Shown here in pieces: positions 6,370 through 61,642 of a DNA stretch of 64,000 nt. The stretch comes from Candidatus Nomurabacteria bacterium. Its GTDB lineage: Bacteria > Patescibacteriota > Minisyncoccia > Phycocordibacterales > UBA9973. Both the position numbers and the translations under genes were made by a program. The first letter of the stretch is position 1. Each line of letters opens with the position of its first letter. The stretch lies in assembly GCA_031425235.1 (NCBI GenBank), contig JANPIZ010000008.1, positions 91,377-155,376 of the forward strand, given 5' to 3'. The notes beneath the pieces are model-generated. The model was not told the DNA's origin. It did not search any database and saw only the letters and a program-made list of their open reading frames with translations.

Positions 6370-8076
6370 ATGAAACAAGAAAGTGAAACAAAATCGTGCC
6401 AGAATTGCAAACAAGACTTTACTATCGAGCCGGACGATTTTGGATTTTATGAAAAAATAAAAGTACCTCTGCCAACTTTTTGCTCAGAATGCCGCAGGCA
6501 AAGAAGGCTTGCATGGAAGAATACATACAACTTATACAACAATTCTTGTAGTCTTTGTGGTAAAAACATTATTTCAATATATTCCCCTGATTCCTCTTTA
6601 ATTATTTACTGTGTTAGCTGTTTTTGGAGTGATAAATGGGATGCATATCAATACGGGCAAGATTTTGACCCTAATAGGTCTTTTTTTGAACAGTATATAG
6701 ATCTTAATAAAAAGGTACCAAAAATAGCTTTAATGAATGATGATGGTATTGCAAGTGTAAATAGTGCTTATTGTCACGATGTTGCTTTTTCGAAAAATTG
6801 CTACATGGTATTTATTTCCTGGAAACTTGAAAATGTGATGTATTCAGGAATGTTAAACAAGGGTCGCGAAATATGCGATTGCCTTTGCATGCAAGATTTT
6901 TGTGAGTATATGTACGAGTCAATGTTTGTAGATGAATGTTATAAATGCAGATATGTGACGTATGGTAGCATGCTACAAAATTGCGATTTTTGTTATGATT
7001 GTCGTGAGTGCAGTGATTGCTTTATGAGCTTTGGCTTGCGTAATAAAAAATATTTTTATAAGAACAAACAGTATTCCAAAGAAGAATACGAAAAAATTCT
7101 TAAATCTTATCAATTGCATACACGAACGGGTTGGGAAAGAGCCAAAAATGAATATAAAGAATTTATAATAACTTATCCTCGTCGTTTTGCTATGATAAGG
7201 AATTCAGTTAACTGTACGGGAGATGACCTTATAAGATGTAAAAACACGAGAGATTCCTTTTTTGCTCCCTTTAGTGAAGACTCTCGCTTTGTTGCAGGAG
7301 GGGTTAATTTTAAGAATTGTTATGATTTGTCTGGTGGAGGGGAAGTAGAGTATAGTTATGAATCTATCACGCCCGATCAATCATATAATAATTTTTTTAG
7401 TATCTATTCTTGGAAAAATAAAGAAATAGCTTATTGTGATAATTGTCATTCGTCTAATAACCTTTTTGGTTGTGCAAGCTTGAAAAAAGGTGAATACTCA
7501 ATATTAAATAAGAAATATTCAAAAGAAGATTATTTTAAATTAAAAGAAAAAATAATAATAAAAATGAAACATGATGGGGAATGGGGAGAATTTTTTCCAG
7601 TTCGATATTCATATTTTGGATATAATGAAACTGAAGCTTTTGATATGAATATTTTATCAAAACATGAAGCTGAAAATTTAAACTATAAATGGCGAGATAA
7701 TTTACAAAGAACTATTGGACAAGAAACTATCTCTCAAAAGGAAATACCAGATTCTATTTTTGATACAACTGAGTATATTTTATATGAAATTTTAAAATGT
7801 GAATCTTGCTCTCGAAATTATAAAGTTACGAACGACGAGCTGGTGTTTTACAAAAGAATGAATGTACCTATTCCAAAAATTTGCTTTTTCTGTAGAAATA
7901 AAAATCGCTTAAATACTAGAAATCCGTTTAAGCTTTGGCATCGCTCATGTATGTGTACTGTCAAGAATCACTTTCATGGAGAAAATAATTGTAAAATAGA
8001 ATTTGAAACTTCCTATGCCCCTGATCGGCCGGAGATGGTATATTGTGAAAAATGTTATCAAGCTGAAGTTTACTAG
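6370..8076 (+). CDS. Large cysteine-rich protein, paralogue 1 (unrecognised family; terminal zinc-ribbon-like motifs plus internally duplicated Cys-repeat core)
   Basis: 568 aa. N-terminal CQNCKQDF...FYEKIKVPLPTFCSECRRQRRL...C..C is repeated near the C-terminus (FYKRMNVPIPKICFFCRNKNRL...C.C). N-K-K-Y-S-K-E-E/D-Y occurs twice. The protein aligns end to end at roughly 40% identity with the ORF at 47848-49554. Confidence 0.8.
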   Translation: MKQESETKSCQNCKQDFTIEPDDFGFYEKIKVPLPTFCSECRRQRRLAWKNTYNLYNNSCSLCGKNIISIYSPDSSLIIYCVSCFWSDKWDAYQYGQDFDPNRSFFEQYIDLNKKVPKIALMNDDGIASVNSAYCHDVAFSKNCYMVFISWKLENVMYSGMLNKGREICDCLCMQDFCEYMYESMFVDECYKCRYVTYGSMLQNCDFCYDCRECSDCFMSFGLRNKKYFYKNKQYSKEEYEKILKSYQLHTRTGWERAKNEYKEFIITYPRRFAMIRNSVNCTGDDLIRCKNTRDSFFAPFSEDSRFVAGGVNFKNCYDLSGGGEVEYSYESITPDQSYNNFFSIYSWKNKEIAYCDNCHSSNNLFGCASLKKGEYSILNKKYSKEDYFKLKEKIIIKMKHDGEWGEFFPVRYSYFGYNETEAFDMNILSKHEAENLNYKWRDNLQRTIGQETISQKEIPDSIFDTTEYILYEILKCESCSRNYKVTNDELVFYKRMNVPIPKICFFCRNKNRLNTRNPFKLWHRSCMCTVKNHFHGENNCKIEFETSYAPDRPEMVYCEKCYQAEVY

Positions 8077-11780: not shown

Positions 11781-12167
11781 TTATTCACATAACTTTTTAA
11801 AATTTTCCTTGTCTGATAATAGTTGAATACTGATTTTGTTTAATCTTTCACGGAGACTACTGTTCCACCAGCTGTTTCCGTCAAGTTCACTTTTCCAGCT
11901 TAGTAAGAACGACTCAGTTCTTTTGAATGCTAATTTTTTTAAAGCGAGATCATCTATTTCACTACAAAGATCCAGAAAAGCATTTTTTTCAAGATTGAAA
12001 TTTTCAAGTAAATTTTCAACTCTACTTAAAACAACTTTTGCAGAAAATGCACTACAATAGCTTTTTGTTATTTCGTTTTGAAACGTTTGCAATAACATTG
12101 CAGTGTTTAAAAACGATAAACACAGTATATCCGGGATGCTCAGCTTTGAACTCTTCATTGTTTGCAT
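11781..12167 (-). CDS. hypothetical protein (128 aa) inside the direct-repeat-bounded segment
   Basis: Intact ORF with no recognisable domain. Confidence 0.4.
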   Translation of the reverse strand: MQTMKSSKLSIPDILCLSFLNTAMLLQTFQNEITKSYCSAFSAKVVLSRVENLLENFNLEKNAFLDLCSEIDDLALKKLAFKRTESFLLSWKSELDGNSWWNSSLRERLNKISIQLLSDKENFKKLCE

Positions 12168-12413: not shown

Positions 12414-12810
12414 CTATGTAGATGACGGTGTAGTTGTTTGTGTGATGTTTTTTGTAGCTATTACGATGCCCCAGAAGCACGCGTCGGCAACAAGACCACC
12501 CATTATTCCTCCGGCTGTAACCCCAAAGAAATTTATAAAAATAAATATGAACAGTGGTCGGAGCAAAAAGCTATCTAAAACTTCAGCTCCAAAAAATTCT
12601 CTAATTACTTTACCTATCGAGCTAAAGTAACCCCCTGTTGGCAATTTTCTTTTCAAAAATTGTAGCGACGATCCAACAGGGAAGAATGTCAGCTGCAATA
12701 AATATTACAATCGCAGTATTTTTATCGACTGCAATTACACCGAGCAAGATTGCAATTGTGATGCTTACTAGGTGTGAAATCAACTCGTTAGCTAAAATAT
12801 TATTTAACAT
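12414..12810 (-). pseudogene. Possible frameshifted small membrane protein (two overlapping ORFs, 62 aa and 94 aa; the downstream part resembles the GlsB/YeaQ/YmgE transglycosylase-associated family)
   Basis: The ORFs at 12622-12810 and 12414-12698 overlap at a G5 run (aacagggggttac) where a +1 shift joins them. Gly-rich TM segments FFGVTAGGIMGGLVADACFWGIVIA. Confidence 0.3.
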
Positions 12811-22423: not shown

Positions 22424-22642
22424 ATGGAAAACTATGTAATTGCGCGCGAGCTTCCCTTTCCTTATAAAGAAAATAAGGAAGAAATCACTTGCGATGTGCT
22501 GTTCCCTGATGGGACAATTATCGAGAATGGTATAGTGACCACGTATCCAGATGGTATGAAGTCACTAAGGATAATAATTCATGGCTGGGAATTAGGAACA
22601 TTTCAGTCTGGTCTAAAAGGGTTAAAATTTAAGGTCAAATAA
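22424..22642 (+). CDS. small hypothetical protein (72 aa)
   Basis: Intact ORF followed by a clean terminator hairpin at 22642-22690. No homology recognised. Confidence 0.35.
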   Translation: MENYVIARELPFPYKENKEEITCDVLFPDGTIIENGIVTTYPDGMKSLRIIIHGWELGTFQSGLKGLKFKVK

Positions 22643-29439: not shown

Positions 29440-30798
29440 ATGACCAAGAAATTAGTCACAGCTTTTTTGTTTATTGCTTTCGTATTTTCAGGATTCGCGG
29501 GTTACCCAATTAAGGCTGCTTTTGATTGCTTGAAACTAAGTGCTGATTCAAGTCAAGCGGATAAGGATTATTGTAAGGGCGAGCTTAGTCAAATAGAAGC
29601 TCAATTGGCTGAACTGATAGCAAAACAAAAAGAACAACAAAAAACCACAGGAACGCTAAAAGGAGACGTGAATTATTTAACGAGCCAGATTAATGCTTTA
29701 AAAGCTAAAATAAAAGCTCGAGGTCTTGCTATTACTCAGATTAAAGTAAGTATCAATGAAAAAGTTAGTAAAATAGGCTCCCTTTCAAGTAAAATTGAGC
29801 GTGAACATGCCTCATTAGCTGAACTATTGCGAAGTACTAATGAATTTGATGGTGGAAATATTATGCACTTATTATTGTCAGATCAGAGTGTGTCAGATTT
29901 TTATGCTGACGTAGAATCATACTCGGCGATGAAAGAGGGAATCGAAGATTCACTAGGTGTTGTGAGAGTTGTAAAAAAACAAACAGAACTAGCAAAAGCT
30001 GACTTGGAAATCAAACAAGACGCAGAAACAGACGCAAAAGCTGACCTTGAAAGTGCTCAATCAGTGGTGGCTAAGTCTGAAGCAGACAAAAAAAACTTAC
30101 TTGCTATTTCTAAAAACCAAGAAGCAGAATATCAAAAACTTGCTGCAGAAAAAAAAGCTCGGGCGGATAAAATTCGTGCTGCACTATTTCCCCTCGCAAA
30201 TACAACTCAAAAAATTGATTTCGGTACTGCACTTAAATATGCAAATGAAGCCAATAGAACAACAGGCATAGAACCTGCATTCTTGCTTGCAATATTAACT
30301 CAAGAAAGTAATTTGGGTGCCAATGTGGGTCAATGTTATCTTACTGACACGACCACAGGAGCAGGCGCTGGTAAAAACACAGGTACACCATTTATAAATG
30401 TTATGAAACCGACACGTGACGTTGCGCCATTTTTGGAAATTACGAAAGCACTCGGTGTGGACCCATTTAAAACTCCTGTGTCATGTCCTATAGCTGGAGT
30501 TGCTGGGTATGGTGGCGCGATGGGGCCAGCACAATTTATTCCTTCTACTTGGAAAATATTTGCCGGACGTTTACAAGCTGCACTCGGACGTTACGCAAAT
30601 CCATGGTTGGCTCAAGACGCTTTTATGGCTTCTAGTATGTACCTTACTGACCTCGGTGCTGTGGGTACGAGCACTGCTCTCCAGCATAAGGCTGCTTGTA
30701 AATATTATGGTTCTGGGGGGACGAGTTGTTCATATAGTACAAATGTGATGAGGTTAAAGGCAACTATTCAGGCTAATATTAATTTGCTTCAGAACTAA
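29440..30798 (+). CDS. secreted coiled-coil protein with C-terminal lytic transglycosylase (SLT/GH23-like) domain
   Basis: Signal peptide, long coiled coil, then ILTQESNLG ... GAMGPAQFIPSTW (SLT catalytic Glu-Ser and GLMQ-like motifs). Confidence 0.6.
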   Translation: MTKKLVTAFLFIAFVFSGFAGYPIKAAFDCLKLSADSSQADKDYCKGELSQIEAQLAELIAKQKEQQKTTGTLKGDVNYLTSQINALKAKIKARGLAITQIKVSINEKVSKIGSLSSKIEREHASLAELLRSTNEFDGGNIMHLLLSDQSVSDFYADVESYSAMKEGIEDSLGVVRVVKKQTELAKADLEIKQDAETDAKADLESAQSVVAKSEADKKNLLAISKNQEAEYQKLAAEKKARADKIRAALFPLANTTQKIDFGTALKYANEANRTTGIEPAFLLAILTQESNLGANVGQCYLTDTTTGAGAGKNTGTPFINVMKPTRDVAPFLEITKALGVDPFKTPVSCPIAGVAGYGGAMGPAQFIPSTWKIFAGRLQAALGRYANPWLAQDAFMASSMYLTDLGAVGTSTALQHKAACKYYGSGGTSCSYSTNVMRLKATIQANINLLQN

Positions 30799-32897: not shown

Positions 32898-33218
32898 ATG
32901 GCTACAAAGCTATATGTAGGGGGTTTACCTTACAGTACACAAGAAGCTGCTTTAAAAGAGCTCTTCGCACAAGCAGGAAACGTTGTTTCAGCTGTGATTA
33001 TCATGGACAAAATGTCCGGTCGTTCTAAGGGTTTTGGTTTCGTTGAAATGTCATCTGACGAGGAAGCACAAAAGGCTATCTCAATGTTCAATGAGCAAGA
33101 TTTTGAAGGACGAAAACTAACTGTAAACGAAGCTCGCCCTATGGAAGCTCGCCCACCACGAACAGGTGGTAACGGCGGAGGTGGATACGGAAACGGTGGA
33201 GGAAGACGAGAATACTAA
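32898..33218 (+). CDS. glycine-rich RNA-binding protein (RRM domain)
   Basis: RNP-2 LYVGGL, RNP-1 KGFGFVEM and a C-terminal GGNGGGGYGNGGG tail. Preceded by a ~190-nt 5' UTR and a GGAGA Shine-Dalgarno sequence. Confidence 0.9.
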   Translation: MATKLYVGGLPYSTQEAALKELFAQAGNVVSAVIIMDKMSGRSKGFGFVEMSSDEEAQKAISMFNEQDFEGRKLTVNEARPMEARPPRTGGNGGGGYGNGGGRREY

Positions 33219-41490: not shown

Positions 41491-43449
41491 TTACAATAAA
41501 TCTTCAGGGTCTACAAATATTTCAAAATCAAAAGGCAATCCTCTTAGTTTTGTAAGTAATTTCTGGTCTATTGTGGTGTTCGTGGAAAGCTCCGGAAGGG
41601 ACCAATCTTTTGTTTCTATCTTTATAAGGGCGTTAACCACATATTTTCTTTTAACATACGATACAAAACCACTAAAAATGAGCGGTTTGTACTCAGCCAA
41701 AACCTCTTCGAATATTTTCTTTGCTTGAGTCGTATTCGTTTTACTGCCTGAATATTTTATTTTTATAAAACGCTTAAAGGGAGGGTATCCAAGGCGAGCT
41801 CTATCTTTTAACTCGCTTCGAATGAATAATAGGAGATTTCTTGATTGAATAGCCTTAATTGCGGGATCAGTGTCATTTTTTGTTTGAATAATAAGTTTTT
41901 GTGATGTTTTAGTGATAATGCCACTTACAATCTGTAGCACTTTTTCACTGATAGTAAAATTTGGAATACTCCAAAATGAATCAAAGGAAGCTACTACCGA
42001 CAATGGCACTTTATTTTTTATGTAATGTATTGCCATTTCAGTACCGACTAAAATAGCGCCAGAAGTTTCTTCAAACTCAGTGATTATTTTCAACGCCTCC
42101 TTTTTTGTTTTTACGGATTCCCGGTCCAATCTAAATATTTTTACGTCTGGAAAGATAGTGCTGAGCTCCTGTTCGACTGTTTCAGTACCTATACCAAGTG
42201 GGGAGAGGTTCCAGCTATCACAGTTAGAACAAATGACGTCGCTATTTTTTTCGTCTCCACATCTATTACAAACAAAAAATCTTTTACCATCTCTATTCGA
42301 CATGTATAACACGAGTGGCGACGAGCAGTTTTTACAGCTTACTAATTCCCCGCAGTCACTACAGATTGTCTGAGTAGCTAAACCTTTCCGCAGCGTAAAT
42401 ACAAAAACATTATTTTGCTTTGAGAGAGAACTGGCTATTTCTCGCAAGCTTTTTTGGGGAAACACTTTAAAAGAAAATGCTTTGCTCTCGACTGCAGGCG
42501 TAGAAGCTTTTAATACTTTAGGATTTTGTATGTCTATTTCTCCCTCGAAGTTGAATCGAAATGATAAAGGATGCATTACTGGCAGGCCTTCGGTAGTCTG
42601 CCTTGATATTGTTTCAAATCGCAGAAGGCTATCACTAATAATGTACTTAGCATTAATGTTTGAAGCAAAAATTTCAACAAACGTCCTCAAGTCAAAGTGA
42701 GGCCTTGCAATCATTTTATAGTTTGGTGAACTCTCGTGTTCAAGTATTATTACTCCAACATCAGTACGGGGAATTGACAGAAAAGGAGTCGTAGCAAGTA
42801 TTAAAACAGTATGCTCTACATTCATAACATTCTTGAATTTTTCAAGGATTTTTTTTGAACTGTATCCCCCATGAAATGTAAAAGTAAATTGCTCTATTCC
42901 CTTCGAAAGGTATTCTTCAAAGTCTACTACATCTTTTTCAGTAGGTAAAACGACAAAGACAGATTTTTTGTTGGCAAAATTTTCACGAATCAAAGTTTTA
43001 TAAATAGATATACGATTTTCAAAATCTTCTTGTAAAAGCAATTTTTCATTCTTGAGTTGGGATAAAGAATTTTTAAAAATTTTCTTAGTATCTATGTATG
43101 CTGCTATAGTATCGTATTCATCTCGAAATAAAGCTGGGATAAGGGAAGTGATGGCACTGTTTTTACTAGAAGCAAAATATACCCCCGTCGACATGATTGC
43201 TTCTATGTATTCTTTTCGGAAAATAGACTTTCCTTTTACTTCAAGGATTTTTTTTAAATTAAAATCCATACCCTTAATGTTCATTTTAGTATCTGTTGCA
43301 TTTTCAACTGAAACAACGAGTGCAAGAGTTTTTGTATTACGCACATAGACACTTACGATGCTCCCCGGGCCTATGTTTTTAGTGGTGAAATATGATAAAT
43401 CGTTCTTTAAAAGTCCCTTTTTTAGCGGTATAACGTTCACGATTTTCAT
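41491..43449 (-). CDS. priA: primosomal protein N' (PriA)-like helicase with degenerate Walker A
   Basis: Cys4 zinc-binding insert CSDCGELVSCKNCSSPLVLY...CNRCG, motif-II-like LEHESSPNYK and HGGYSS, but no GxGKT P-loop. Confidence 0.65.
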   Translation of the reverse strand: MKIVNVIPLKKGLLKNDLSYFTTKNIGPGSIVSVYVRNTKTLALVVSVENATDTKMNIKGMDFNLKKILEVKGKSIFRKEYIEAIMSTGVYFASSKNSAITSLIPALFRDEYDTIAAYIDTKKIFKNSLSQLKNEKLLLQEDFENRISIYKTLIRENFANKKSVFVVLPTEKDVVDFEEYLSKGIEQFTFTFHGGYSSKKILEKFKNVMNVEHTVLILATTPFLSIPRTDVGVIILEHESSPNYKMIARPHFDLRTFVEIFASNINAKYIISDSLLRFETISRQTTEGLPVMHPLSFRFNFEGEIDIQNPKVLKASTPAVESKAFSFKVFPQKSLREIASSLSKQNNVFVFTLRKGLATQTICSDCGELVSCKNCSSPLVLYMSNRDGKRFFVCNRCGDEKNSDVICSNCDSWNLSPLGIGTETVEQELSTIFPDVKIFRLDRESVKTKKEALKIITEFEETSGAILVGTEMAIHYIKNKVPLSVVASFDSFWSIPNFTISEKVLQIVSGIITKTSQKLIIQTKNDTDPAIKAIQSRNLLLFIRSELKDRARLGYPPFKRFIKIKYSGSKTNTTQAKKIFEEVLAEYKPLIFSGFVSYVKRKYVVNALIKIETKDWSLPELSTNTTIDQKLLTKLRGLPFDFEIFVDPEDLL

Positions 43450-45809: not shown

Positions 45810-46670
45810 ATGCTTGAAAAGCCAATCACGAAACAAGTAGCAACTAATCTTGGTAATCCAAATAATTACTCATTGATAAGTCCATCAGTGAAGTTAGGCT
45901 TTTTGGCAGATGAGGAAATTAAACAAAATAGAACAAGAATTGAGAACGACGAAGAAAGACATATCAGAACCTTTACCGACAAAGAGACTGGTGAAGTGTT
46001 TTACGAAATGAAACCAGAGAGCAATCCAAAGGCACAAATGCTTTTGTCCCTTTTTCTAAAAGGGGTAGTAAATGTTACTGATATTATAAAGGTTGATAAT
46101 GTATATTATGCTCATAAGCAAGATTTCAGTAAAATTGAATCGACTGAAAATAATATCGTTCCTCAATTAAAAGCTGATATGTTATTATTAAATTTAGGAT
46201 TTGAAGATTTTGATCATAAATATTATGAGCGCAGCACAAGTGAGCGAGATCAAATCATTGCAAAACAAGACGGGCTTTCTGAACACCACAACTTAATCAC
46301 AGATGAAGCTAATGGAAAGTATGTTTTCTTTGATTTCAATAACCCTTCTTGGCAATGGCTGGAAAAAATTAAAAAAACTCGTGATCCAGAAATGTTAGAA
46401 AAAATATTTGAAGCTAAGTTTACTAACAAATACTTTTCTGAAGACATAAATAAAGACGAAATACTGGAAACTATTAAAAATAAATCAACGACTCTTTTAA
46501 ATAATTATGGTAATCTTGAGTCCGATGCTTTCAAACAAATTGTAAAAAGATCGGAAATTGAATTATCAGAAAATGACAGAGAACTCGTATTAAACGGTAT
46601 TAAATTAAGATTACAAACACTGGTTAAAGTAATATCAAAACTTAAACCTAATAATAACAAAAATATATAA
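45810..46670 (+). CDS. hypothetical protein (286 aa) in the frr-rseP interval
   Basis: Intact ORF. No signal peptide or TM segment. No family recognised. Confidence 0.45.
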   Translation: MLEKPITKQVATNLGNPNNYSLISPSVKLGFLADEEIKQNRTRIENDEERHIRTFTDKETGEVFYEMKPESNPKAQMLLSLFLKGVVNVTDIIKVDNVYYAHKQDFSKIESTENNIVPQLKADMLLLNLGFEDFDHKYYERSTSERDQIIAKQDGLSEHHNLITDEANGKYVFFDFNNPSWQWLEKIKKTRDPEMLEKIFEAKFTNKYFSEDINKDEILETIKNKSTTLLNNYGNLESDAFKQIVKRSEIELSENDRELVLNGIKLRLQTLVKVISKLKPNNNKNI

Positions 46671-46673
46671 TAT

Positions 46674-47828
46674 ATGAGCATACTTATCTTTATCGTAATC
46701 TTACTTGTTCTCGTTCTTGTTCACGAATGTGGTCACTTTTTTTCTGCTAAAAAATTCGGTATACGCGTAGATGAATTTGGTTTCGGTTTTCCACCAAAAT
46801 TATTTGGTAAGAAAATAGGGGAGACAGAGTACACTGTCAATTTACTACCGATCGGTGGCTTTGTGAAAATTTTCGGGGAAGATCCAAATGAAGAAAATAT
46901 AAATGGACCTGATGCTGCGCGAAGCTTCGTACATAAACCAAAATGGCAGCAGGCCATCGTTCTTATGGCGGGCGTAGCAGCAAACTTTTTGCTTGCGTGG
47001 CTACTTTTTTCTATCGGATTTATGTCCGGCTTGCCTACCTCAGTAAATAGCGCTGACCCAAAATATGAATTATCAAATGTGAGCCTTGTGGTAGTTTCTG
47101 TGGCTCCTGATTCACCCGCAATGAAAGCGGGTCTGCAATCTGGCGACAAAATAATTGCTATAGATTCTACAACTTCTTCAGATTTAGCAGCTAGTCAAGG
47201 AATTAAAAATCCAAGCCCGGATCAATTGAAAGATTTTATTGTTAAAGAAGGATCAGTCTCTAAAGAAGGCCAACTTGCAGGTCAACTATCTCCAGTATTA
47301 GGAATCACATATACTCGTGGTAATACTGAAGAACAAATAGCATTCATAATGCCAGATCAAAACTCAGGAACTGGAGAAGCTACCATAGGCATATCCATGG
47401 ATCAAATAGGAACCGCAAAATTGCCTATTTTTAAAGCTTTTTACGAAGGAGCTAAACTTACCCTAATTGTTACAAAGGGCACAGTGGTGGGGCTTTACAC
47501 GCTTATTACCGATGGTTTAAAAGGTAAAGGCAGTCTGGATGCAGTTACTGGCCCAGTGGGTATGGTCGGTATTGTAGGCGATGCGTACCAATTCGGATTC
47601 GTATACCTATTATCCTTTGCAGCACTTATATCTATAAATCTAGGAATTATAAACGCGATACCTTTCCCTGCACTCGATGGTGGGCGACTCTTCTTCCTCA
47701 TTATAGAAAAAATAAAAGGCTCACCGATAACTCCCAAAATAGCGAACACTGCGAACATGATCGGGTTCGGACTACTTATACTTCTCATGGTTGTCGTAAC
47801 ATATCACGACATAGCTAAGTTATTCTAG
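46674..47828 (+). CDS. rseP: RIP metalloprotease RseP (M50 site-2 protease with PDZ domain)
   Basis: HECGHF zinc motif in TM1 and an internal PDZ domain; 384 aa. Confidence 0.85.
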   Translation: MSILIFIVILLVLVLVHECGHFFSAKKFGIRVDEFGFGFPPKLFGKKIGETEYTVNLLPIGGFVKIFGEDPNEENINGPDAARSFVHKPKWQQAIVLMAGVAANFLLAWLLFSIGFMSGLPTSVNSADPKYELSNVSLVVVSVAPDSPAMKAGLQSGDKIIAIDSTTSSDLAASQGIKNPSPDQLKDFIVKEGSVSKEGQLAGQLSPVLGITYTRGNTEEQIAFIMPDQNSGTGEATIGISMDQIGTAKLPIFKAFYEGAKLTLIVTKGTVVGLYTLITDGLKGKGSLDAVTGPVGMVGIVGDAYQFGFVYLLSFAALISINLGIINAIPFPALDGGRLFFLIIEKIKGSPITPKIANTANMIGFGLLILLMVVVTYHDIAKLF

Positions 47829-47847: not shown

Positions 47848-49554
47848 ATGACAAGTGAAACAAAAAATTGTCAAAATTGTAAAACAGATTTTGTAATAGA
47901 ATCTGGAGACTTTAACTTTTATGAAAAAATAAAAGTTCCACCGCCGACCTTTTGTCCGAACTGTAGACTTACGCGTAGATTTCTCCATTCAAATGAAATG
48001 GTGTTATACAAACGTAAATGCGACCTGACTCAAAAAGATATTTTTAGCATGTATCCACCTAAAACACTTTTTCCTGTCTATGAGACATCGGAGTGGTATT
48101 CTGACAAATGGGATGCATATGAATATGGGATGGATTTCGATGAGACCAGACCCTTTTTAGAGCAATTTTTAGAGCTCCAAAATAAAGTACCGCGTATGGC
48201 TCTGACACAACAAGGTCAAACAATTAATAGTGCGTATACTCATAGAGTATCTTATCCAAAAAACTCATACATGGCTTTTCGAGCTTCTTATCCAGAGGAT
48301 TGTTTGTATGTGTATAACGCCAAGTACACTCGAAATTGCGCTGACTCAATATGGATTTTTGACTCAGATCTTTGTTATGAATGTATAAATGTAGAAAATT
48401 GTTACAACTTAAAATATAGTCAAGAATGCAAAGATTCCCGTGATTCCAGCTTTTTATACAGTTGTAAAAACACCTCAAATTCAACTTTATGTGTTAATTT
48501 AGTCAACGCAGAGTGCTGTATTTGGAATAAAAAATATACAAAAGAAGAGTACGTCAAAAAATTAGCAAACATGGGACTCAATAAATTTTCTAACGTTGAG
48601 AAGCTAAAGAAAGAGTTTGAAGAGTTTAGAAAGAAATTTCCACAAAGAGCTGTGGCTTCATTAAAATCTGAGCAAGTGTCTGGTAACTGGTTTTCGGGTT
48701 GCAAAAATGTTCATGAATCATTTGATTGCGTCAATGTAAAAGATGGCAAATATTTATTCATGGTTTTCAATGCCGAAGATTGTATGGATTTTTTCGAATG
48801 GGGCAACAAAGCCGAGCAAATCTATGAGACAACTAATGCTGGTCTCAATGTTGCCAGATTATACTTTTGCTTTCAGTGTTGGATGGGAGCAACAGATCTG
48901 TATTACTGCAACACATGTCCTGGTGCACGAAACTGCTTTGGTTGCGTGGGTCTAAAGAAAGGCGAATACTCTATTCTAAACAAGAAGTATTCGAAAGAAG
49001 AATATGAAATTTTAAAAGAAAAAATTATTAAGCATATGCAAAAAATGCCTTTTATAAGTAATACTGGTATTGAATATAAATTTGGGGAATTTTTTCCTCC
49101 AGAATTTTCAGATCATGCTTATAATGAAACCATCGCAAATTATTATTTTCCACTTTCACAAGAGGAAGCTTTGTCTCGCGGTTATAAATGGAAAGACAAG
49201 GAAAAAGTAGTCCACCAGACGACAGTCAAAGCTAAGGATCTGCCAGACACAATAGAAGAAGTAACTGACGCCATACTCAATGAAATCATAGAGTGCGGAG
49301 AAAAAGATAATCCAGAATCAGTTGGAGCGTTTCGCATAACTCCAAATGAGCTCAATTTTTATAGGAAAATGAATATTCCACTACCGAGAGTATGCTTTAG
49401 CATCAGACACTTGCGCCGGATGGACAGGAGACCAAAACTAAACATTTTTAAGAGAAAATGTGATAAGTGTAGTGTTGAAGTTGAAACAGTATATACTAAA
49501 GAGCATGCACCGGTATTGTATTGTGAAAAATGTTATCAACAAGAAGTTTACTAA
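47848..49554 (+). CDS. Large cysteine-rich protein, paralogue 2
   Basis: 568 aa with the same architecture as 6370-8076. Identical C-terminus YCEKCYQ.EVY. Conserved LKKGEYSILNKKYSKEEY block. Confidence 0.8.
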   Translation: MTSETKNCQNCKTDFVIESGDFNFYEKIKVPPPTFCPNCRLTRRFLHSNEMVLYKRKCDLTQKDIFSMYPPKTLFPVYETSEWYSDKWDAYEYGMDFDETRPFLEQFLELQNKVPRMALTQQGQTINSAYTHRVSYPKNSYMAFRASYPEDCLYVYNAKYTRNCADSIWIFDSDLCYECINVENCYNLKYSQECKDSRDSSFLYSCKNTSNSTLCVNLVNAECCIWNKKYTKEEYVKKLANMGLNKFSNVEKLKKEFEEFRKKFPQRAVASLKSEQVSGNWFSGCKNVHESFDCVNVKDGKYLFMVFNAEDCMDFFEWGNKAEQIYETTNAGLNVARLYFCFQCWMGATDLYYCNTCPGARNCFGCVGLKKGEYSILNKKYSKEEYEILKEKIIKHMQKMPFISNTGIEYKFGEFFPPEFSDHAYNETIANYYFPLSQEEALSRGYKWKDKEKVVHQTTVKAKDLPDTIEEVTDAILNEIIECGEKDNPESVGAFRITPNELNFYRKMNIPLPRVCFSIRHLRRMDRRPKLNIFKRKCDKCSVEVETVYTKEHAPVLYCEKCYQQEVY

Positions 49555-49593
49555 ACTTAGTAGAGAAGTATCAGCGTACTAGCATGATAGTAT

Positions 49594-50340
49594 ATGAAAA
49601 AAGTAAAAACAAAATTAATTCACGATATTCGAGCTGTAAAAAATAAAAAAGAACTTGCGAATATAATTAAAGCTCAAAGAATAAGTGAGCGAGTTTTGCT
49701 CGACGCCTTAAAATATTTAAAAGATGGAATTACTGAGCTCGAAGTAGAGGCTTTTATAAAAAAAGCTTTCGTAAAACATGGGGCGCCTATTTTATCATTT
49801 GCTCCAATTGTCGCCTTCGGTAAAAATACAGCAAACATTCACCACGTGCCAAATAAAACAAAACTGGAAGAAGGGGACTTGGTCATGTTCGACATCGGCA
49901 CGACAGTCAATCACTATTGTTCGGATATGACCCGTACCTTTTTCTGGGGCAAAGCACCAGAAGAAAAAAGAAAGAAGCAAATAAAAATTTACGAAGCCGT
50001 ACTGAAAGCACAGAACCTCGCCCTAGAAAAAATAAAGTCCGGCGAGCGAAGATGTGCGGTGATAGATAAGGTTGCCAGAGATTTTATAGCAAAGAAGTAT
50101 CCTGATAATTTTAAACATGGACTCGGGCATGGAGTAGGCACGGTGATCCACGAATGGCCAAATTTTAAGCCAAAAAGTGAGGATATAGTACCGGCAGGAT
50201 GTGTAATGACAGTTGAACCAGGAATTTATATAAAAGGTTTTGGGGGAGTGAGAATAGAAGATATGGTACTAATTACAAAAAGCGGTTATAAACATCTCAC
50301 AAAACTCCCGCGCGACTTAAAAAGTGCTTTTTTGAAATAA
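49594..50340 (+). CDS. M24-family metallopeptidase (Xaa-Pro aminopeptidase/prolidase-like, catalytic domain only)
   Basis: Pita-bread fold with the HGLGHGVG metal-ligand motif; 248 aa. Confidence 0.75.
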   Translation: MKKVKTKLIHDIRAVKNKKELANIIKAQRISERVLLDALKYLKDGITELEVEAFIKKAFVKHGAPILSFAPIVAFGKNTANIHHVPNKTKLEEGDLVMFDIGTTVNHYCSDMTRTFFWGKAPEEKRKKQIKIYEAVLKAQNLALEKIKSGERRCAVIDKVARDFIAKKYPDNFKHGLGHGVGTVIHEWPNFKPKSEDIVPAGCVMTVEPGIYIKGFGGVRIEDMVLITKSGYKHLTKLPRDLKSAFLK

Positions 50341-50394
50341 AATTGTAATATATTTAGATATATGGTTATATAGATTTAGAGGAGGAATAGAAAT

Positions 50395-50577
50395 ATGTAT
50401 TGCATGAAGTGTCGTAGGAAAATTACTGAATCCTATGATGAAAAATGTCGCTGTGGATACAGTCACACTAGTATGGAGTGCGAGTGTGAAAAAGTAACGG
50501 AACCCTGTCCAAATTGCGGCAGTGGAAATTATTATTTAGGATCCTGCAGTAAATGCAGATATCCCCACGAACCATAA
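50395..50577 (+). CDS. small cysteine-rich protein (60 aa, 11 Cys; multiple CxxC/CxC pairs, zinc-ribbon-like)
   Basis: Canonical GAGGAGG Shine-Dalgarno 8 nt upstream of the ATG, which is rare in this window. Its own terminator lies at 50595-50626. Confidence 0.55.
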   Translation: MYCMKCRRKITESYDEKCRCGYSHTSMECECEKVTEPCPNCGSGNYYLGSCSKCRYPHEP

Positions 50578-50594
50578 ACCACCAACAAGGAGCC

Positions 50595-50626
50595 ACCTAG
50601 CACTTGTAGGTGGTTTTCTCTTTTTA
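50595..50626 (+). terminator. Rho-independent terminator after the small Cys-rich gene
   Basis: ccacctagcacttgtaggtgg followed by ttttctcttttt. Confidence 0.7.
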
Positions 50627-50671
50627 AGCTGATTTTTGCAAACTGAAAAAATTGGGAGTATACTTTAACTT

Positions 50672-51787
50672 ATGGTAAAGAAATTTATCCCGCCTAGGCG
50701 TGGGAAACTAAAAATTGGAGTTTTATTTGGAGGTAAGTCTGCTGAACATGAGGTTTCTCTCCAGTCCGCACGTAATGTAATCAATTCACTCGACCCGAAA
50801 AAATACGACATTGTACCCATAGGTATAAACAAGGAAGGCCGATGGCTTCTCAGTGATACATCTAATTATTTATTGAATAGCAATAACCCAAAACTGATAA
50901 AGTTAAATAGCTCAAGTAAAGAAGTAGCCCTGTATCCTCAAAATCAAGGTGCTTTGACTAATATCAATAATTCGAGCCTGAAAACAGTAGCACAGGTTGA
51001 TGTTGTCTTTCCTGTACTACACGGACCTTTTGGTGAAGATGGAAGTATCCAAGGACTTTTTAAAATTGCGGGTATACCCTTTGTCGGGCCGAGCGTGCTT
51101 GGCTCAGCTGTTGGCATGGACAAAGATATAATGAAACGACTTTTACGTGATGCGGGTGTTCCTATCGGAAAATTTAGAACAATATCCTCTGGAGAGAAAG
51201 TAAATTTTAACACTATAAAAAAAGAACTTGGACTGCCACTTTTTATTAAACCTGCAAATATGGGCTCATCTATTGGGGTCAGTAAAGTAAAAAATGAAGT
51301 TGAGTTCAAAAAAGCAATAAAAGAAGCCTTCCAATTTGATACCAAAGTAATCGTCGAAGAAAACATACAAGCACGAGAAATAGAATGTGCCGTACTCGGC
51401 AATGAGTATCCAATGGCTTCAGTCCCAGGTGAAATTATCGCAAATCAAGACTTTTATTCTTACGGCGCCAAATATATCGACGAAGGTTCAGTTGCGGAAA
51501 TTCCAGCAAAAATAGATAAAAAAACTACCAAAAAAATCCAAGAATTAGCTATCCAAACTTTTCAAGTTCTTGCGTGCGAAGGTATGGCTCGAGTTGATTT
51601 TTTTCTGACAAAGACTGGCAAGGTATACGTTAACGAAATAAATACAATCCCTGGTTTTACGAACATCAGCATGTACCCAAAGCTCTGGGAGGCGAGTGGT
51701 TTACCACAAGCAAAACTCATGGATAGGCTGATAGAGCTTGCTATTGAGCGCTTTGAGCGAGAACAGAAGTTAAAAACAAGCATGTAG
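50672..51787 (+). CDS. ddl: D-alanine--D-alanine ligase
   Basis: ATP-grasp fold; N-terminal GGKSAEHEVSLQSA; 371 aa. Confidence 0.9.
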   Translation: MVKKFIPPRRGKLKIGVLFGGKSAEHEVSLQSARNVINSLDPKKYDIVPIGINKEGRWLLSDTSNYLLNSNNPKLIKLNSSSKEVALYPQNQGALTNINNSSLKTVAQVDVVFPVLHGPFGEDGSIQGLFKIAGIPFVGPSVLGSAVGMDKDIMKRLLRDAGVPIGKFRTISSGEKVNFNTIKKELGLPLFIKPANMGSSIGVSKVKNEVEFKKAIKEAFQFDTKVIVEENIQAREIECAVLGNEYPMASVPGEIIANQDFYSYGAKYIDEGSVAEIPAKIDKKTTKKIQELAIQTFQVLACEGMARVDFFLTKTGKVYVNEINTIPGFTNISMYPKLWEASGLPQAKLMDRLIELAIERFEREQKLKTSM

Positions 51788-51832
51788 TAAATAGTCTTGC
51801 TTTTTAAAGGATTTTATACTAATATAATAGGC

Positions 51833-51991
51833 ATGTCACAAGATAGACTTATAAAATTTGGCTGCACAGTGTGCAAGGAAATCAACTATATTTCAAGTAA
51901 AAACAAGAAGCTTGTAGTTAAAAAGCTTCAGTTGAACAAATTCTGCAAACGATGCCGAAAGCAAACTCCACACAAAGAACTCAAAAAATAG
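51833..51991 (+). CDS. rpmG: 50S ribosomal protein L33
   Basis: MSQDRLIKFGCTVCK...CKRCRKQTPHKE, a Cys4 zinc-ribbon L33. ATG at 51833 is preferred. Confidence 0.8.
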   Translation: MSQDRLIKFGCTVCKEINYISSKNKKLVVKKLQLNKFCKRCRKQTPHKELKK

Positions 51992-57198: not shown

Positions 57199-58665
57199 CT
57201 AACTACCGAAAGATTTCAATTTACTAAGCAAACTATGCTTTTCAAGATACGACTTGATATGCTTCCTGGCCATAGTAGTTTTCACGTAGTTAAGCCATTT
57301 GTTTGAAGGGTTAGAATTTTTGTTTATTATAATATTCACAATATCTCCATTTTTAAGTTTGGAAAATATCTGTGACATCTTGTCATTTATCTTTGCTCCT
57401 GAAGTATGATTACCGATATCAGAATGTATTGCATAGGCGAAGTCGATCGGAGTTGAATCTTCAGGTAAATCAACCACGTCGCCTCGCGGAGTAAATACGA
57501 AAATACGATCACTAAAGAAATCGATGTGCAGTCGCTCAATAAATTTTTTAGGCTGGCCAGGCGAATACTGGAGATTTTTCAAATCTTCGATCCATTGGAA
57601 TTTTAGTTTGCTAACATCTTTTTTCTTTTTACTACGCTCTTTGTACGCGAAGTGAGCCGCCACACCATATGTCGCTTCGTTGTGCATGTCTTCTGTTTTT
57701 ATCTGTATTTCTACGAAACTACCAGAGCCAGTAAAGACCGTAGTGTGCAATGATTGGTATCCATTTGGTTTTGGCAGGGCGATATAATCCTTGATACGAC
57801 CTGGTAAAGGAGTCCACATTGAATGAATAAGCCCCAGTACGCGGTAACACTCTTCTATATTTTCTACAACGACACGAAGCGCGACAACATCGTACACTTT
57901 ATTTATATCCATATCGTACTTCAAAAGTTTTTTGTAGAGACTATATTTATGTTTTACTCGATAGTCTATTTCAGTAAATTTTATTTTATTTTTTTCAAGT
58001 TCTTTTTTAAGTCGATCACTTACTTCCATTAAATTTCTCTGATACAACCCTTTGCTTTCTTTTAAAATTTCTTCCATCTCCTTATACTCTTTCGGGTATA
58101 CGTAGGGGAATGCGGCATCTTCTATTTCACCTTTTAATTTTCCCATCCCGAGTCGGTTGGCAAGGGGCGCATACACACTGATAGATTCGAGAGCTATGCG
58201 ACGACGTTTGTCTTCACGGACAAATTCTAATGTCTTCAAATTATGGAGCCGGTCAGCGAGTTTTATGATAACTACTCGCAGGTCGTTCGCCATTGCCATG
58301 AAAAATTTACGCAAACTCTCCACATGCCGCTCATACCCACTGTATTTTAGAGTCGAGAGTTTAGTTACACCTTTTATTAAAAATAAAATATCATCGTTAA
58401 ACTCTTTCTTGATTTGCTCTTCTGAGGTTTCGGTATCTTCTAAAACATCATGTAGCAACCCCGAAGCGATCGTTTGAGTATCCATGCCGAGAGCAGCGAG
58501 GGTTTTTGCTGTTTCAAAAGGGTGTACAAAATAAGGCTCACCTGAATTACGTTTTTGTCCTGCGTGAGCATTCTCGGCCACAATAAAAGCTTTTTTTATG
58601 AGCTCCTCATCTTTTTTATTAGCCTTGTTTGGCATGAGGCTTAGAATTTCTTTCACATCTGGCAT
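57199..58665 (-). CDS. rel: bifunctional (p)ppGpp synthetase/hydrolase Rel (HD + synthetase + TGS; no ACT domain)
   Basis: HD motif HDVLEDT, synthetase motif, and TGS (DRIFVFTPRGDVVDLP); 488 aa. Confidence 0.8.
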   Translation of the reverse strand: MPDVKEILSLMPNKANKKDEELIKKAFIVAENAHAGQKRNSGEPYFVHPFETAKTLAALGMDTQTIASGLLHDVLEDTETSEEQIKKEFNDDILFLIKGVTKLSTLKYSGYERHVESLRKFFMAMANDLRVVIIKLADRLHNLKTLEFVREDKRRRIALESISVYAPLANRLGMGKLKGEIEDAAFPYVYPKEYKEMEEILKESKGLYQRNLMEVSDRLKKELEKNKIKFTEIDYRVKHKYSLYKKLLKYDMDINKVYDVVALRVVVENIEECYRVLGLIHSMWTPLPGRIKDYIALPKPNGYQSLHTTVFTGSGSFVEIQIKTEDMHNEATYGVAAHFAYKERSKKKKDVSKLKFQWIEDLKNLQYSPGQPKKFIERLHIDFFSDRIFVFTPRGDVVDLPEDSTPIDFAYAIHSDIGNHTSGAKINDKMSQIFSKLKNGDIVNIIINKNSNPSNKWLNYVKTTMARKHIKSYLEKHSLLSKLKSFGS

Positions 58666-61252: not shown

Positions 61253-61642
61253 TTAAAACGGATTTCCTGTTGTCGGAACAGGGGCAGGTGTAGGCTTCTT
61301 ATTTGTTGTTTTTTCCCTTCCAAAAAGAAGGTAAAGAGTTAAGATTCTTACCGGAGAATTAATTATCTGACTCCGAATAAATTCTTCTTTCGCAACAAAA
61401 AGAGGATACTCCTTTAATTTTTTATCTGCGCCCTCGCAAACATACGCAACTTTTCCAAGCCGTTTAGTTTTCCATTTGAAAGACGAAAACTTGGCTTTGG
61501 TAGTTGTGTTAATAAAAACCTCGCCGGGCTTGATGCCGGGAAAGTTTTCACTCCCAAAAACACACTGAACTTTTTTACTTTGCGCAAACGATGACAAAGC
61601 GAGCAAAAATACAAACACCACAAGGACTAACAATTTTTTCAT
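61253..61642 (-). CDS. small secreted hypothetical protein (signal peptide, Pro/Thr-rich C-terminus)
   Basis: MKKLLVLVVFVFLLALSSFAQS signal peptide. Confidence 0.5.
   Translation of the reverse strand: MKKLLVLVVFVFLLALSSFAQSKKVQCVFGSENFPGIKPGEVFINTTTKAKFSSFKWKTKRLGKVAYVCEGADKKLKEYPLFVAKEEFIRSQIINSPVRILTLYLLFGREKTTNKKPTPAPVPTTGNPF

Follow-up and report, generated by a model that had tools for sequence, protein, structure and literature searches.

A 60-codon orphan open reading frame probably encoding a tandem zinc-ribbon micro-protein in a housekeeping gene block of Candidatus Nomurabacteria

Introduction

Small zinc-finger micro-proteins that carry C(P)XCG motifs, such as HVO_2753 and HVO_0758, have been described in the archaeon Haloferax volcanii (PMC11241148, PMC10716476). 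Such a motif may hold zinc or a different metal, or bind no metal at all; AlphaFold2 (AF2) cannot tell which, and the metal content had to be measured protein by protein (PMC11241148). Here, we describe a 60-codon open reading frame (ORF) from a bacterium, Candidatus Nomurabacteria (Patescibacteriota; assembly GCA_031425235.1), whose predicted product is of a similar kind. The ORF (mini-ORF, encoding the mini-protein) lies in a stretch of 64,000 nucleotides from contig JANPIZ010000008.1 (positions 91,377 to 155,376, forward strand). This whole stretch, a chromosome segment with 38% G+C, is called the window below, and all coordinates are window positions unless another locus is named.

An initial annotation had placed the mini-ORF in a functional mini-cluster with two genes upstream of it, one for a 568-aa Cys-rich protein (big2) and the other for an M24 metallopeptidase (M24). 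It had suggested that the mini-protein is a metallothionein-like peptide, a metal chaperone, a zinc-ribbon partner of big2, or a precursor peptide processed by the peptidase. Based on the sequence analyses reported here, we propose that the mini-ORF is probably a real, lineage-restricted gene for a small cytoplasmic protein with tandem zinc ribbons, and that its adjacency to big2 and M24 is positional rather than functional.

Results

Cysteine pattern of the mini-protein

The three ORFs of the proposed cluster lie where the initial annotation had placed them, and the translation of the mini-ORF is exactly the peptide that it quoted. The peptide contains ten Cys residues, not 11 as first counted, together with two His residues (H24 and H58). 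The five Cys pairs at positions 3/6, 18/20, 29/31, 38/41, and 51/54 follow the reported order of CxxC, CxC, CxC, CxxC, and CxxC. Cys accounts for 17% of the 60 residues and Tyr for six of them, the charge is balanced, and the N-terminus reads M-Y-C. Neither a signal peptide nor a hydrophobic stretch was found by residue analysis. When the residues were shuffled with the composition preserved, all ten Cys fell into five CxC/CxxC pairs in 711 of 1,000,000 shuffles (P ~7e-4). Among the 613 small ORFs of the window, the mini-ORF alone has five Cys pairs; the ribosomal zinc-ribbon proteins L31 and L33 and four non-gene ORFs have two pairs each. Nothing comparable was present among 4,899 small ORFs from 50 loci, apart from pieces of the big2 family. 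The Cys pairing of the mini-protein is, hence, more than chance.

The spacing of the pairs can be written as C3xxC6-x11-C18xC20 and C38PNC41G-x9-C51xxC54, in which one knuckle is CxC, not CxxC. The two knuckles of a Cys4 zinc ribbon are ~9 to 20 residues apart, and both halves of the mini-protein have such a spacing. The pattern fits that of a zinc-ribbon-type metal-binding peptide. Searches against Pfam and NCBIfam gave no match at E ≤ 0.1 and only DUF1272 (E 1.9) at E ≤ 10. The reading frame is intact and has no competing ORF. Because its GC content (40%) resembles that of the neighboring genes, the mini-ORF is not obviously foreign by this measure.

Expression signals

The GAGGAGG Shine–Dalgarno (SD) sequence noted in the initial annotation is present upstream of the mini-ORF, with a spacer of 9 nt rather than the reported 8 nt to the ATG; this heptamer occurs only three times in the window with both strands counted (128 kb). 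The intrinsic terminator, which had also been noted, starts 11 nt after the end of the ORF. Its hairpin (50589–50617) consists of 11 pairs, four of which are G-C, and a 7-nt loop, and it is followed by the T-tract CTCTTTTT. The mini-ORF has a layout in common with a 62-aa ORF on the opposite strand (12622–12810), in which TGGT(A/T)A(A/T)AT is followed by ~7 nt, the SD sequence, 8–9 nt, the ATG, and, after the ORF, a hairpin terminator. Because of this common layout, an extended −10 promoter was inferred at 50363–50371. With its SD-bearing leader, plausible extended −10 promoter, and terminator, the mini-ORF looks independently expressed, as had been supposed. A noncoding RNA in the gap was rejected as a candidate: Rfam gave no match in 50300–50720, even at E ≤ 10, and the z-score of −3.0 for the RNA fold takes in the terminator, being unspecific.

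Homology searches

A word-index search did not retrieve a relative of the mini-protein. A phmmer search against 1.84 billion protein representatives, a check that the initial annotation had proposed, yielded no genuine relative, the sole match being a junk 302-aa repeat translation. Peptide-pattern scans of GTDB genomes, JGI metagenomes, and IMG/VR viral contigs were also negative for relatives, and contig scans by DNA pattern detect close relatives only. No match was obtained by tblastn against phage records. In a tblastn search of 120 fetched loci (1.06 Mb, designated by L numbers), the mini-gene was absent from all 119 others. Because small genes are under-called, a negative result from a protein database carries less weight for a 60-mer than it would for a normal gene.

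Two other origins were considered and rejected. BLASTP and hhalign (probability of 0.3) spoke against the mini-protein being a piece of the big2 family, and hidden Markov models (HMMs) built for the N- and C-terminal ribbons and the two core repeats of this family scored it no higher than 1,000 shuffles in which the Cys positions were kept. Weak tblastn matches to Cys-rich parts of the big paralogs arise with the composition correction switched off and reflect Cys bias. As for a mobile element or foreign DNA, no other copies, flanking repeats, or similarity in related loci were found, PHROG and PADLOC gave no match, and the GC content is that given above.

Gene block and synteny

The gene order in the window is mreB-holB-frr-rseP-big2-M24-ddl, and the mini-ORF is located in the gap between M24 and ddl, which encodes D-alanine–D-alanine ligase. 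The big2, M24, and mini-ORF genes are on one strand with gaps of 39 and 54 nt, and no terminator was found between them. In related loci, rseP is found directly upstream of big2 (L002-4/L051, L035, L052, L053, L056, L057, L061, and L114/115). The order rseP-big2-M24-ddl recurs in L002-4/L051, L053, and L114/115, with M24–ddl gaps of 92, ~100, and 3 nt, respectively. A gene for a 333-aa protein is inserted between big2 and M24 in L056 (gap of ~20 nt), and an extra big paralog is inserted at the same place in L035 (gap of ~200 nt). M24 is absent from L052, in which ddl follows big2, and from L061, in which an extra big paralog stands between big2 and ddl. The M24–ddl gaps of the five M24-bearing lineages contain the ddl promoter only and no small ORF.

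M24 follows big2 in five of the seven informative rseP-linked lineages and in none of ~12 other big2-like loci. About a dozen proteins that are 58 to 73% identical to big2 are encoded in unrelated surroundings that lack rseP, M24, and ddl. The paralog of big2 in the window (big1) is located between scpB and mraY, with neither an M24-type peptidase nor a mini-gene nearby. Within ~6 kb upstream and 5 kb downstream of the mini-ORF, the genes encode MreB, HolB, the ribosome recycling factor RRF, an unknown 286-aa protein, RseP, big2, M24, Ddl, a VTT/DedA protein, MiaA, a MurA-like protein, and a kinase. The block is a housekeeping synteny with variable slots, which are occupied here by the gene for the 286-aa protein and the mini-gene.

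The 286-aa ORF (45810–46670) lies between frr and rseP and did not match Pfam, PADLOC, or PHROG. It is absent from the syntenic relatives, in which rseP directly follows frr, and is the second lineage-specific insertion in the block. At the downstream end, the ddl promoter suggests a leaderless mRNA, and an equivalent TATAAT/TATACT box is found 6–8 nt before the ddl ATG in L052, L056, and L061. The relatives L002–L004 and L114 have an 800- to 806-aa fused double D-Ala–D-Ala ligase with two sets of N- and C-terminal domains after M24, and the window has a single 371-aa Ddl.

Shine–Dalgarno and leaderless genes in the window

The initial annotation had stated that most genes of the window have no recognizable SD sequence. 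This is correct for the 51 ORFs with a length of 150 aa or more, as 41 of them have no SD-like motif; among these 51 ORFs and the mini-ORF, GGAGG is found upstream of the mini-ORF alone. A TAnAAT box is present just upstream of 18 of the 51, ending exactly 6–7 nt before the start in 11 of these 18; at random positions, such a box occurs anywhere in the 12-nt range in 9%. Boxed large genes without an SD sequence include those at 29440, 35139, 41491–43449 (minus strand), 45252, 50672, 56191, 57199–58665 (minus strand), and 62675. A box 6–7 nt from the start without an SD sequence points to widespread leaderless mRNAs for large genes.

For the small ORFs, the statement needs to be modified. Six other small stand-alone ORFs (62–138 aa) have AGGAG/GGAGG-type sites 8–11 nt upstream (Table 1), making the SD sequence of the mini-ORF unusual rather than unique. 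This organism therefore seems to have SD-led initiation and to use it for small genes with leaders. The SD sequence of the mini-ORF is credible but not unique because other small stand-alone genes are SD-led. The genome seems to be split between large genes that are leaderless and small stand-alone genes that are SD-led. The 16S rRNA, which would contain the anti-SD sequence, is not present in the window or the fetched loci. A literature search returned nothing on the usage of SD and leaderless initiation in Patescibacteria.

Table 1 Features of the window
Feature	Position	Strand	Basis or remark
Small SD-led ORF	588–1004	−	AGGAG/GGAGG-type site
big1, 568-aa paralog of big2	6370–8076		38% identical to big2 over the full length
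Small SD-led ORF	11781–12167	−	AGGAG/GGAGG-type site
62-aa hydrophobic ORF	12622–12810	−	Small SD-led ORF, AAGGAGG
Small SD-led ORF	22424–22642	+	AGGAG/GGAGG-type site
Clear RRM RNA-binding protein, SD-led	32898–33218	+	AGGAG/GGAGG-type site
rseP-like M50 site-2 protease with PDZ domain, upstream anchor of the block	46674–47828	+	Pfam Peptidase_M50 (E 3e-59), PDZ_6
big2, 568-aa Cys-rich family member	47848–49554	+	Terminal zinc-ribbon/treble-clef domains, internally duplicated Cys-rich core
M24B prolidase-like metallopeptidase, 248 aa, catalytic domain only	49594–50340	+	Pfam PF00557
Putative promoter of the mini-gene	50343–50371	+	TTGTAA (50343–50348), 17 nt, TG-extended TTATAT (TGGTTATAT, 50363–50371); inferred by eye
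Shine–Dalgarno sequence GAGGAGG	50379–50385	+	9 nt before the ATG of the mini-ORF
60-aa orphan mini-ORF	50395–50577	+	ORF list
Intrinsic terminator	50589–50627	+	Hairpin scan; core CCACCTA-gcacttg-TAGGTGG, then TTTTCTCTTTTT
ddl promoter	50636–50671	+	TTGCAA-17-TATACT, ends 7 nt before the ATG of ddl
D-alanine–D-alanine ligase (ddl), downstream anchor of the block	50672–51787	+	Pfam Dala_Dala_lig_N (E 3e-39), Dala_Dala_lig_C (E 4e-75)
Small SD-led ORF	61253–61642	−	AGGAG/GGAGG-type site

The M24 peptidase

The M24 protein matched PF00557 (Peptidase_M24) with an E-value of 4e-64 (216 bits against a cut-off of 23). Its best NCBIfam matches are under the equivalog cut-offs, namely PepQ_Arch (190 of 630 bits), PepP (119 of 465 bits), and type I methionine aminopeptidase (MAP; 80 of 171 bits). 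The best match in the Protein Data Bank (PDB) is Pyrococcus furiosus prolidase (PepQ; PDB ID: 1pv9), whose residues 116–347 were covered with an E-value of 8e-52. The pita-bread catalytic domain aligns end to end with this enzyme, but the ~110-residue N-terminal domain is missing. D100, D111, the His of GHGVG, the Glu of EPG, and the Glu of RIED are identical to the aligned residues of 1pv9, at which the P. furiosus enzyme has its known metal ligands, five in number (D, D, H, E, and E). The short form is conserved in the relatives (243–264 aa). Judged from these alignments, the neighbor is a bona fide member of the M24 family; it is assigned as a short M24B enzyme with the catalytic domain only because of the coverage of 1pv9 and the equivalog scores far below the cut-offs.

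The large Cys-rich family

The presence of a second 568-aa Cys-rich paralog in the window, as pointed out in the initial annotation, was confirmed (Table 1). At E ≤ 1e-3, 5,941 homologs of big2 were obtained, and the corresponding matches of the two paralogs number 5,941 and 6,306; none bears a functional name. All relatives of big2 are named Nomurabacteria, Paceibacterota, or Patescibacteria, and the family appears to be restricted to Patescibacteria. The closest sampled relative is 75% identical to big2. In Pfam, the only hit of big2 was zf_Tbcl at the N-terminus, below threshold (17.5 bits against a gathering cut-off of 24), and one homolog of the family carries a precomputed PF13451 match. 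A weak match to PHROG 15341 was observed over residues 150–318.

The AF2 model of big2, built from an alignment of 60 sequences, has a pLDDT of 84 and a pTM of 0.85. A Foldseek search with the model found no neighbor in the PDB. Its terminal zinc ribbons alone match BFVD entries, which are viral "putative zinc-ribbon domain" proteins, with deviations of 0.6–0.7 Å over 43–44 columns. The architecture of the family looks pseudosymmetric, running from a zinc-ribbon end through two Cys-rich β modules, each followed by an "NKxYSKEEY" helix, to a second zinc-ribbon end. The subfamily of big2 has lost three of the four Cys residues in the second N-terminal zinc ribbon (residues 58–82 of big2): the family consensus is CDLCG...YCxKCWW, whereas big2 has CDLTQ...YETSEWY and its ortholog in L056 has CDMTQ...YETDEWY with the same three Cys residues gone.

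In tandem arrays, up to six or seven diverged members of the family (33–45% identity) stand side by side in Peribacteria and Paceibacteria loci (L011, L013, L020, L023, L025, and L119). In L119/L120, a protein resembling big2 (73% identical) is encoded in an array of four to five paralogs, and the array is followed by a gene for a TraG/VirD4-like ATPase. This arrangement hints that some arrays are located on or near conjugative or mobile DNA. The literature search found nothing on the family or PF13451.

Discussion

Here, we propose how the mini-gene may be organized and what its product may be. The gene would have been inserted in a variable slot of the housekeeping block, namely the M24–ddl gap. 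It would constitute its own transcription unit, comprising the TG-extended −10 promoter, a ~17-nt leader that starts at the SD sequence, the ORF, and the intrinsic terminator. Two Cys4 metal sites are predicted, one formed by C3, C6, C18, and C20 and the other by C38, C41, C51, and C54, and C29 and C31 may form a third site with H24 and H58. The protein might function as a small metal-stabilized binding module for protein or nucleic acid.

Several observations weigh against a real zinc-ribbon gene. The codon log-odds value of the mini-ORF (−0.20 per codon) is under that of every in-frame 59-codon chunk of the window genes; it exceeds that of 97% of the off-frame chunks, and the ten rare Cys codons depress it and account for part of the low value. 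Without a homolog, there is no support for translation or function from conservation, covariation, or dN/dS. The closest genome among those sampled shares just 75% identity in big2, which limits what can be said of the mini-gene within the genus. An exact look-up of the peptide gave nothing in a collection of 15 billion proteins, in which its neighbors are present. This last point carries little weight, as the Logan gene table for this contig also lacks the genuine gene for L33 (zinc-ribbon form, CxxC...CxxC; 51797–51991 in the window, ~9950–10144 in L001), and the mini-ORF is likewise uncalled on this public copy. The promoter was read by eye alone and was not reported by a strict consensus scan. 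The AF2 prediction without an alignment has low confidence (pLDDT of 60), with β-hairpins at 16–23/26–33 and 46–48/50–55, and a Foldseek search with this model found no structural neighbor in the PDB.

These points bear most directly on the possibility that the mini-ORF is not functional, either because the frame is open by chance or decaying (a leftover, for example, of a zinc-finger gene gained by horizontal transfer) or because it arose recently and is not productively translated. It would explain why no collection searched contains a homolog, why the ORF is confined to a single lineage and was passed over by the gene finders of the protein collection, and why its codon composition falls below that of all in-frame gene chunks. 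A chance frame would be less expected to have ten Cys residues in five perfect pairs that include a CPxCG knuckle, a perfect 7-nt SD sequence at the right distance, a terminator directly after the stop codon, an intact frame without a competitor, and the GC content of its neighbors. Because there is no homolog and no evolutionary evidence of selection, a nonfunctional or very young ORF keeps a share of the probability that is minor but must be taken seriously. In a related scenario, a very young zinc micro-protein of the SD-led small-gene class, confined to one Nomurabacteria-like lineage and born de novo or recently captured, was recruited as an accessory subunit of the 568-aa protein two genes upstream; we regard this as quite improbable.

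The functional mini-cluster fared poorly when its co-occurrence was checked. According to this idea, the mini-protein is the zinc-ribbon partner of big2 or a substrate or precursor of M24. Co-transcription is possible from the strand, the short gaps, and the uninterrupted spacing of the three genes, and all three proteins are related to zinc or other metals. However, the family of big2 has more than 5,900 members and the mini-protein has no homolog, leaving no co-occurrence on which a partnership could be based, an outcome that the initial annotation had itself named as a refutation; the mini-gene is missing from every other locus and collection, including five lineages that have the same block. 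M24 itself is dispensable in the block (L052 and L061) and is absent near big1 and all the other big paralogs. The proposal of a precursor peptide is not supported, either. M24 is an Xaa-Pro exopeptidase of the prolidase type, whereas the peptide begins with M-Y-C, and no maturase of ribosomally synthesized and post-translationally modified peptides is encoded within ~6 kb upstream or 5 kb downstream. Such a cluster is, in our judgment, very improbable. The three genes do not stay together in relatives, and their association gives no ground for predicting a joint function.

A metallothionein-like buffer or metal chaperone, in which Zn, Cu, or Cd would be held by clustered thiolates and not in discrete ribbons, is suggested by the high Cys content, the two CxC motifs typical of metallothioneins, the two His residues, the small size, and the apparently independent unit. 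The six Tyr residues and the balanced charge are atypical of such proteins, and classical zinc-ribbon geometry is seen in the CPNCG knuckle and in the 11- and 9-residue spacings. Neither a bacterial metallothionein family nor any Pfam or NCBIfam family other than DUF1272 matched even at E ≤ 10, AF2 placed β-hairpins in the chain, and no metal-homeostasis gene is nearby, all of which make this assignment improbable. The position of the ORF also brings to mind a regulatory leader, since the terminator preceding ddl comes 11 nt after a frame that is rich in a single amino acid, and translation of a Cys-rich leader might control read-through into ddl by attenuation. However, ddl is preceded by a promoter of its own, which lies beyond the terminator and ends 7 nt before the ATG, and this layout is kept in relatives without the mini-ORF. 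A frame of 60 codons with evenly spaced Cys pairs does not resemble a leader for attenuation, ddl is unconnected with the cysteine supply, and no Rfam element was detected. We consider attenuation far-fetched.

If the mini-ORF is indeed a zinc-ribbon gene, it adds to the zinc-finger micro-proteins, which are poorly catalogued and are missed by gene callers. Two by-products of this study are more useful. One is the apparent split between leaderless and SD-led genes. The other is the family of big2, which is very large, Patescibacteria-specific, tandemly amplified, and confidently modeled, with no structural or functional annotation.

The preferred reading, a tandem zinc-ribbon micro-protein, can be compared with three kinds of known proteins. 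SmtA/BmtA metallothioneins are similar in size, richness in Cys and His, and the presence of CxC motifs, but the mini-protein differs from them in its many aromatic residues and ribbon-like spacing and does not match their families in Pfam or NCBIfam. The second half of the mini-protein (CPNCGSGNYYLGSCSKCRY) has the CPxCG-x9-CxxC layout of the ribbons of bL32 and the C terminus of topoisomerase I. Its best sequence match in the PDB is the bL32 ribbon (CPNCGAWHIYHTVCGDCGY), with a phmmer E-value of 0.27 over 22 residues, which is not significant. The mini-protein lacks the conserved basic N-terminal segment of bL32 and gave no match to Pfam zinc-ribbon or NCBIfam models. Identity with this ribosomal protein was rejected, as the match covers only the ribbon and the N-terminal segment is absent.

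The Haloferax C(P)XCG micro-proteins share more features with the mini-protein. They are smaller than 70 aa, cytoplasmic, and composed almost entirely of paired-Cys knuckles including CPxCG, and they are encoded by stand-alone genes, which are often lineage-restricted and mostly without an assigned function. There is no sequence homology between them, and the host is a bacterium of the Patescibacteria rather than an archaeon. The mini-protein has one strict CPxCG motif (C38-P-N-C41-G), and two of its five pairs are CxC. Compared with the Haloferax definition, the size of 60 aa fits and the motif is loosely present: CPNCG at 38–42 is strict, CRCG at 18–21 is of the CxCG form, and R, E, or S comes after each of the other pairs. 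From its sequence features, the mini-protein is predicted to be a tandem zinc-ribbon micro-protein whose closest kind is the C(P)XCG micro-proteins.

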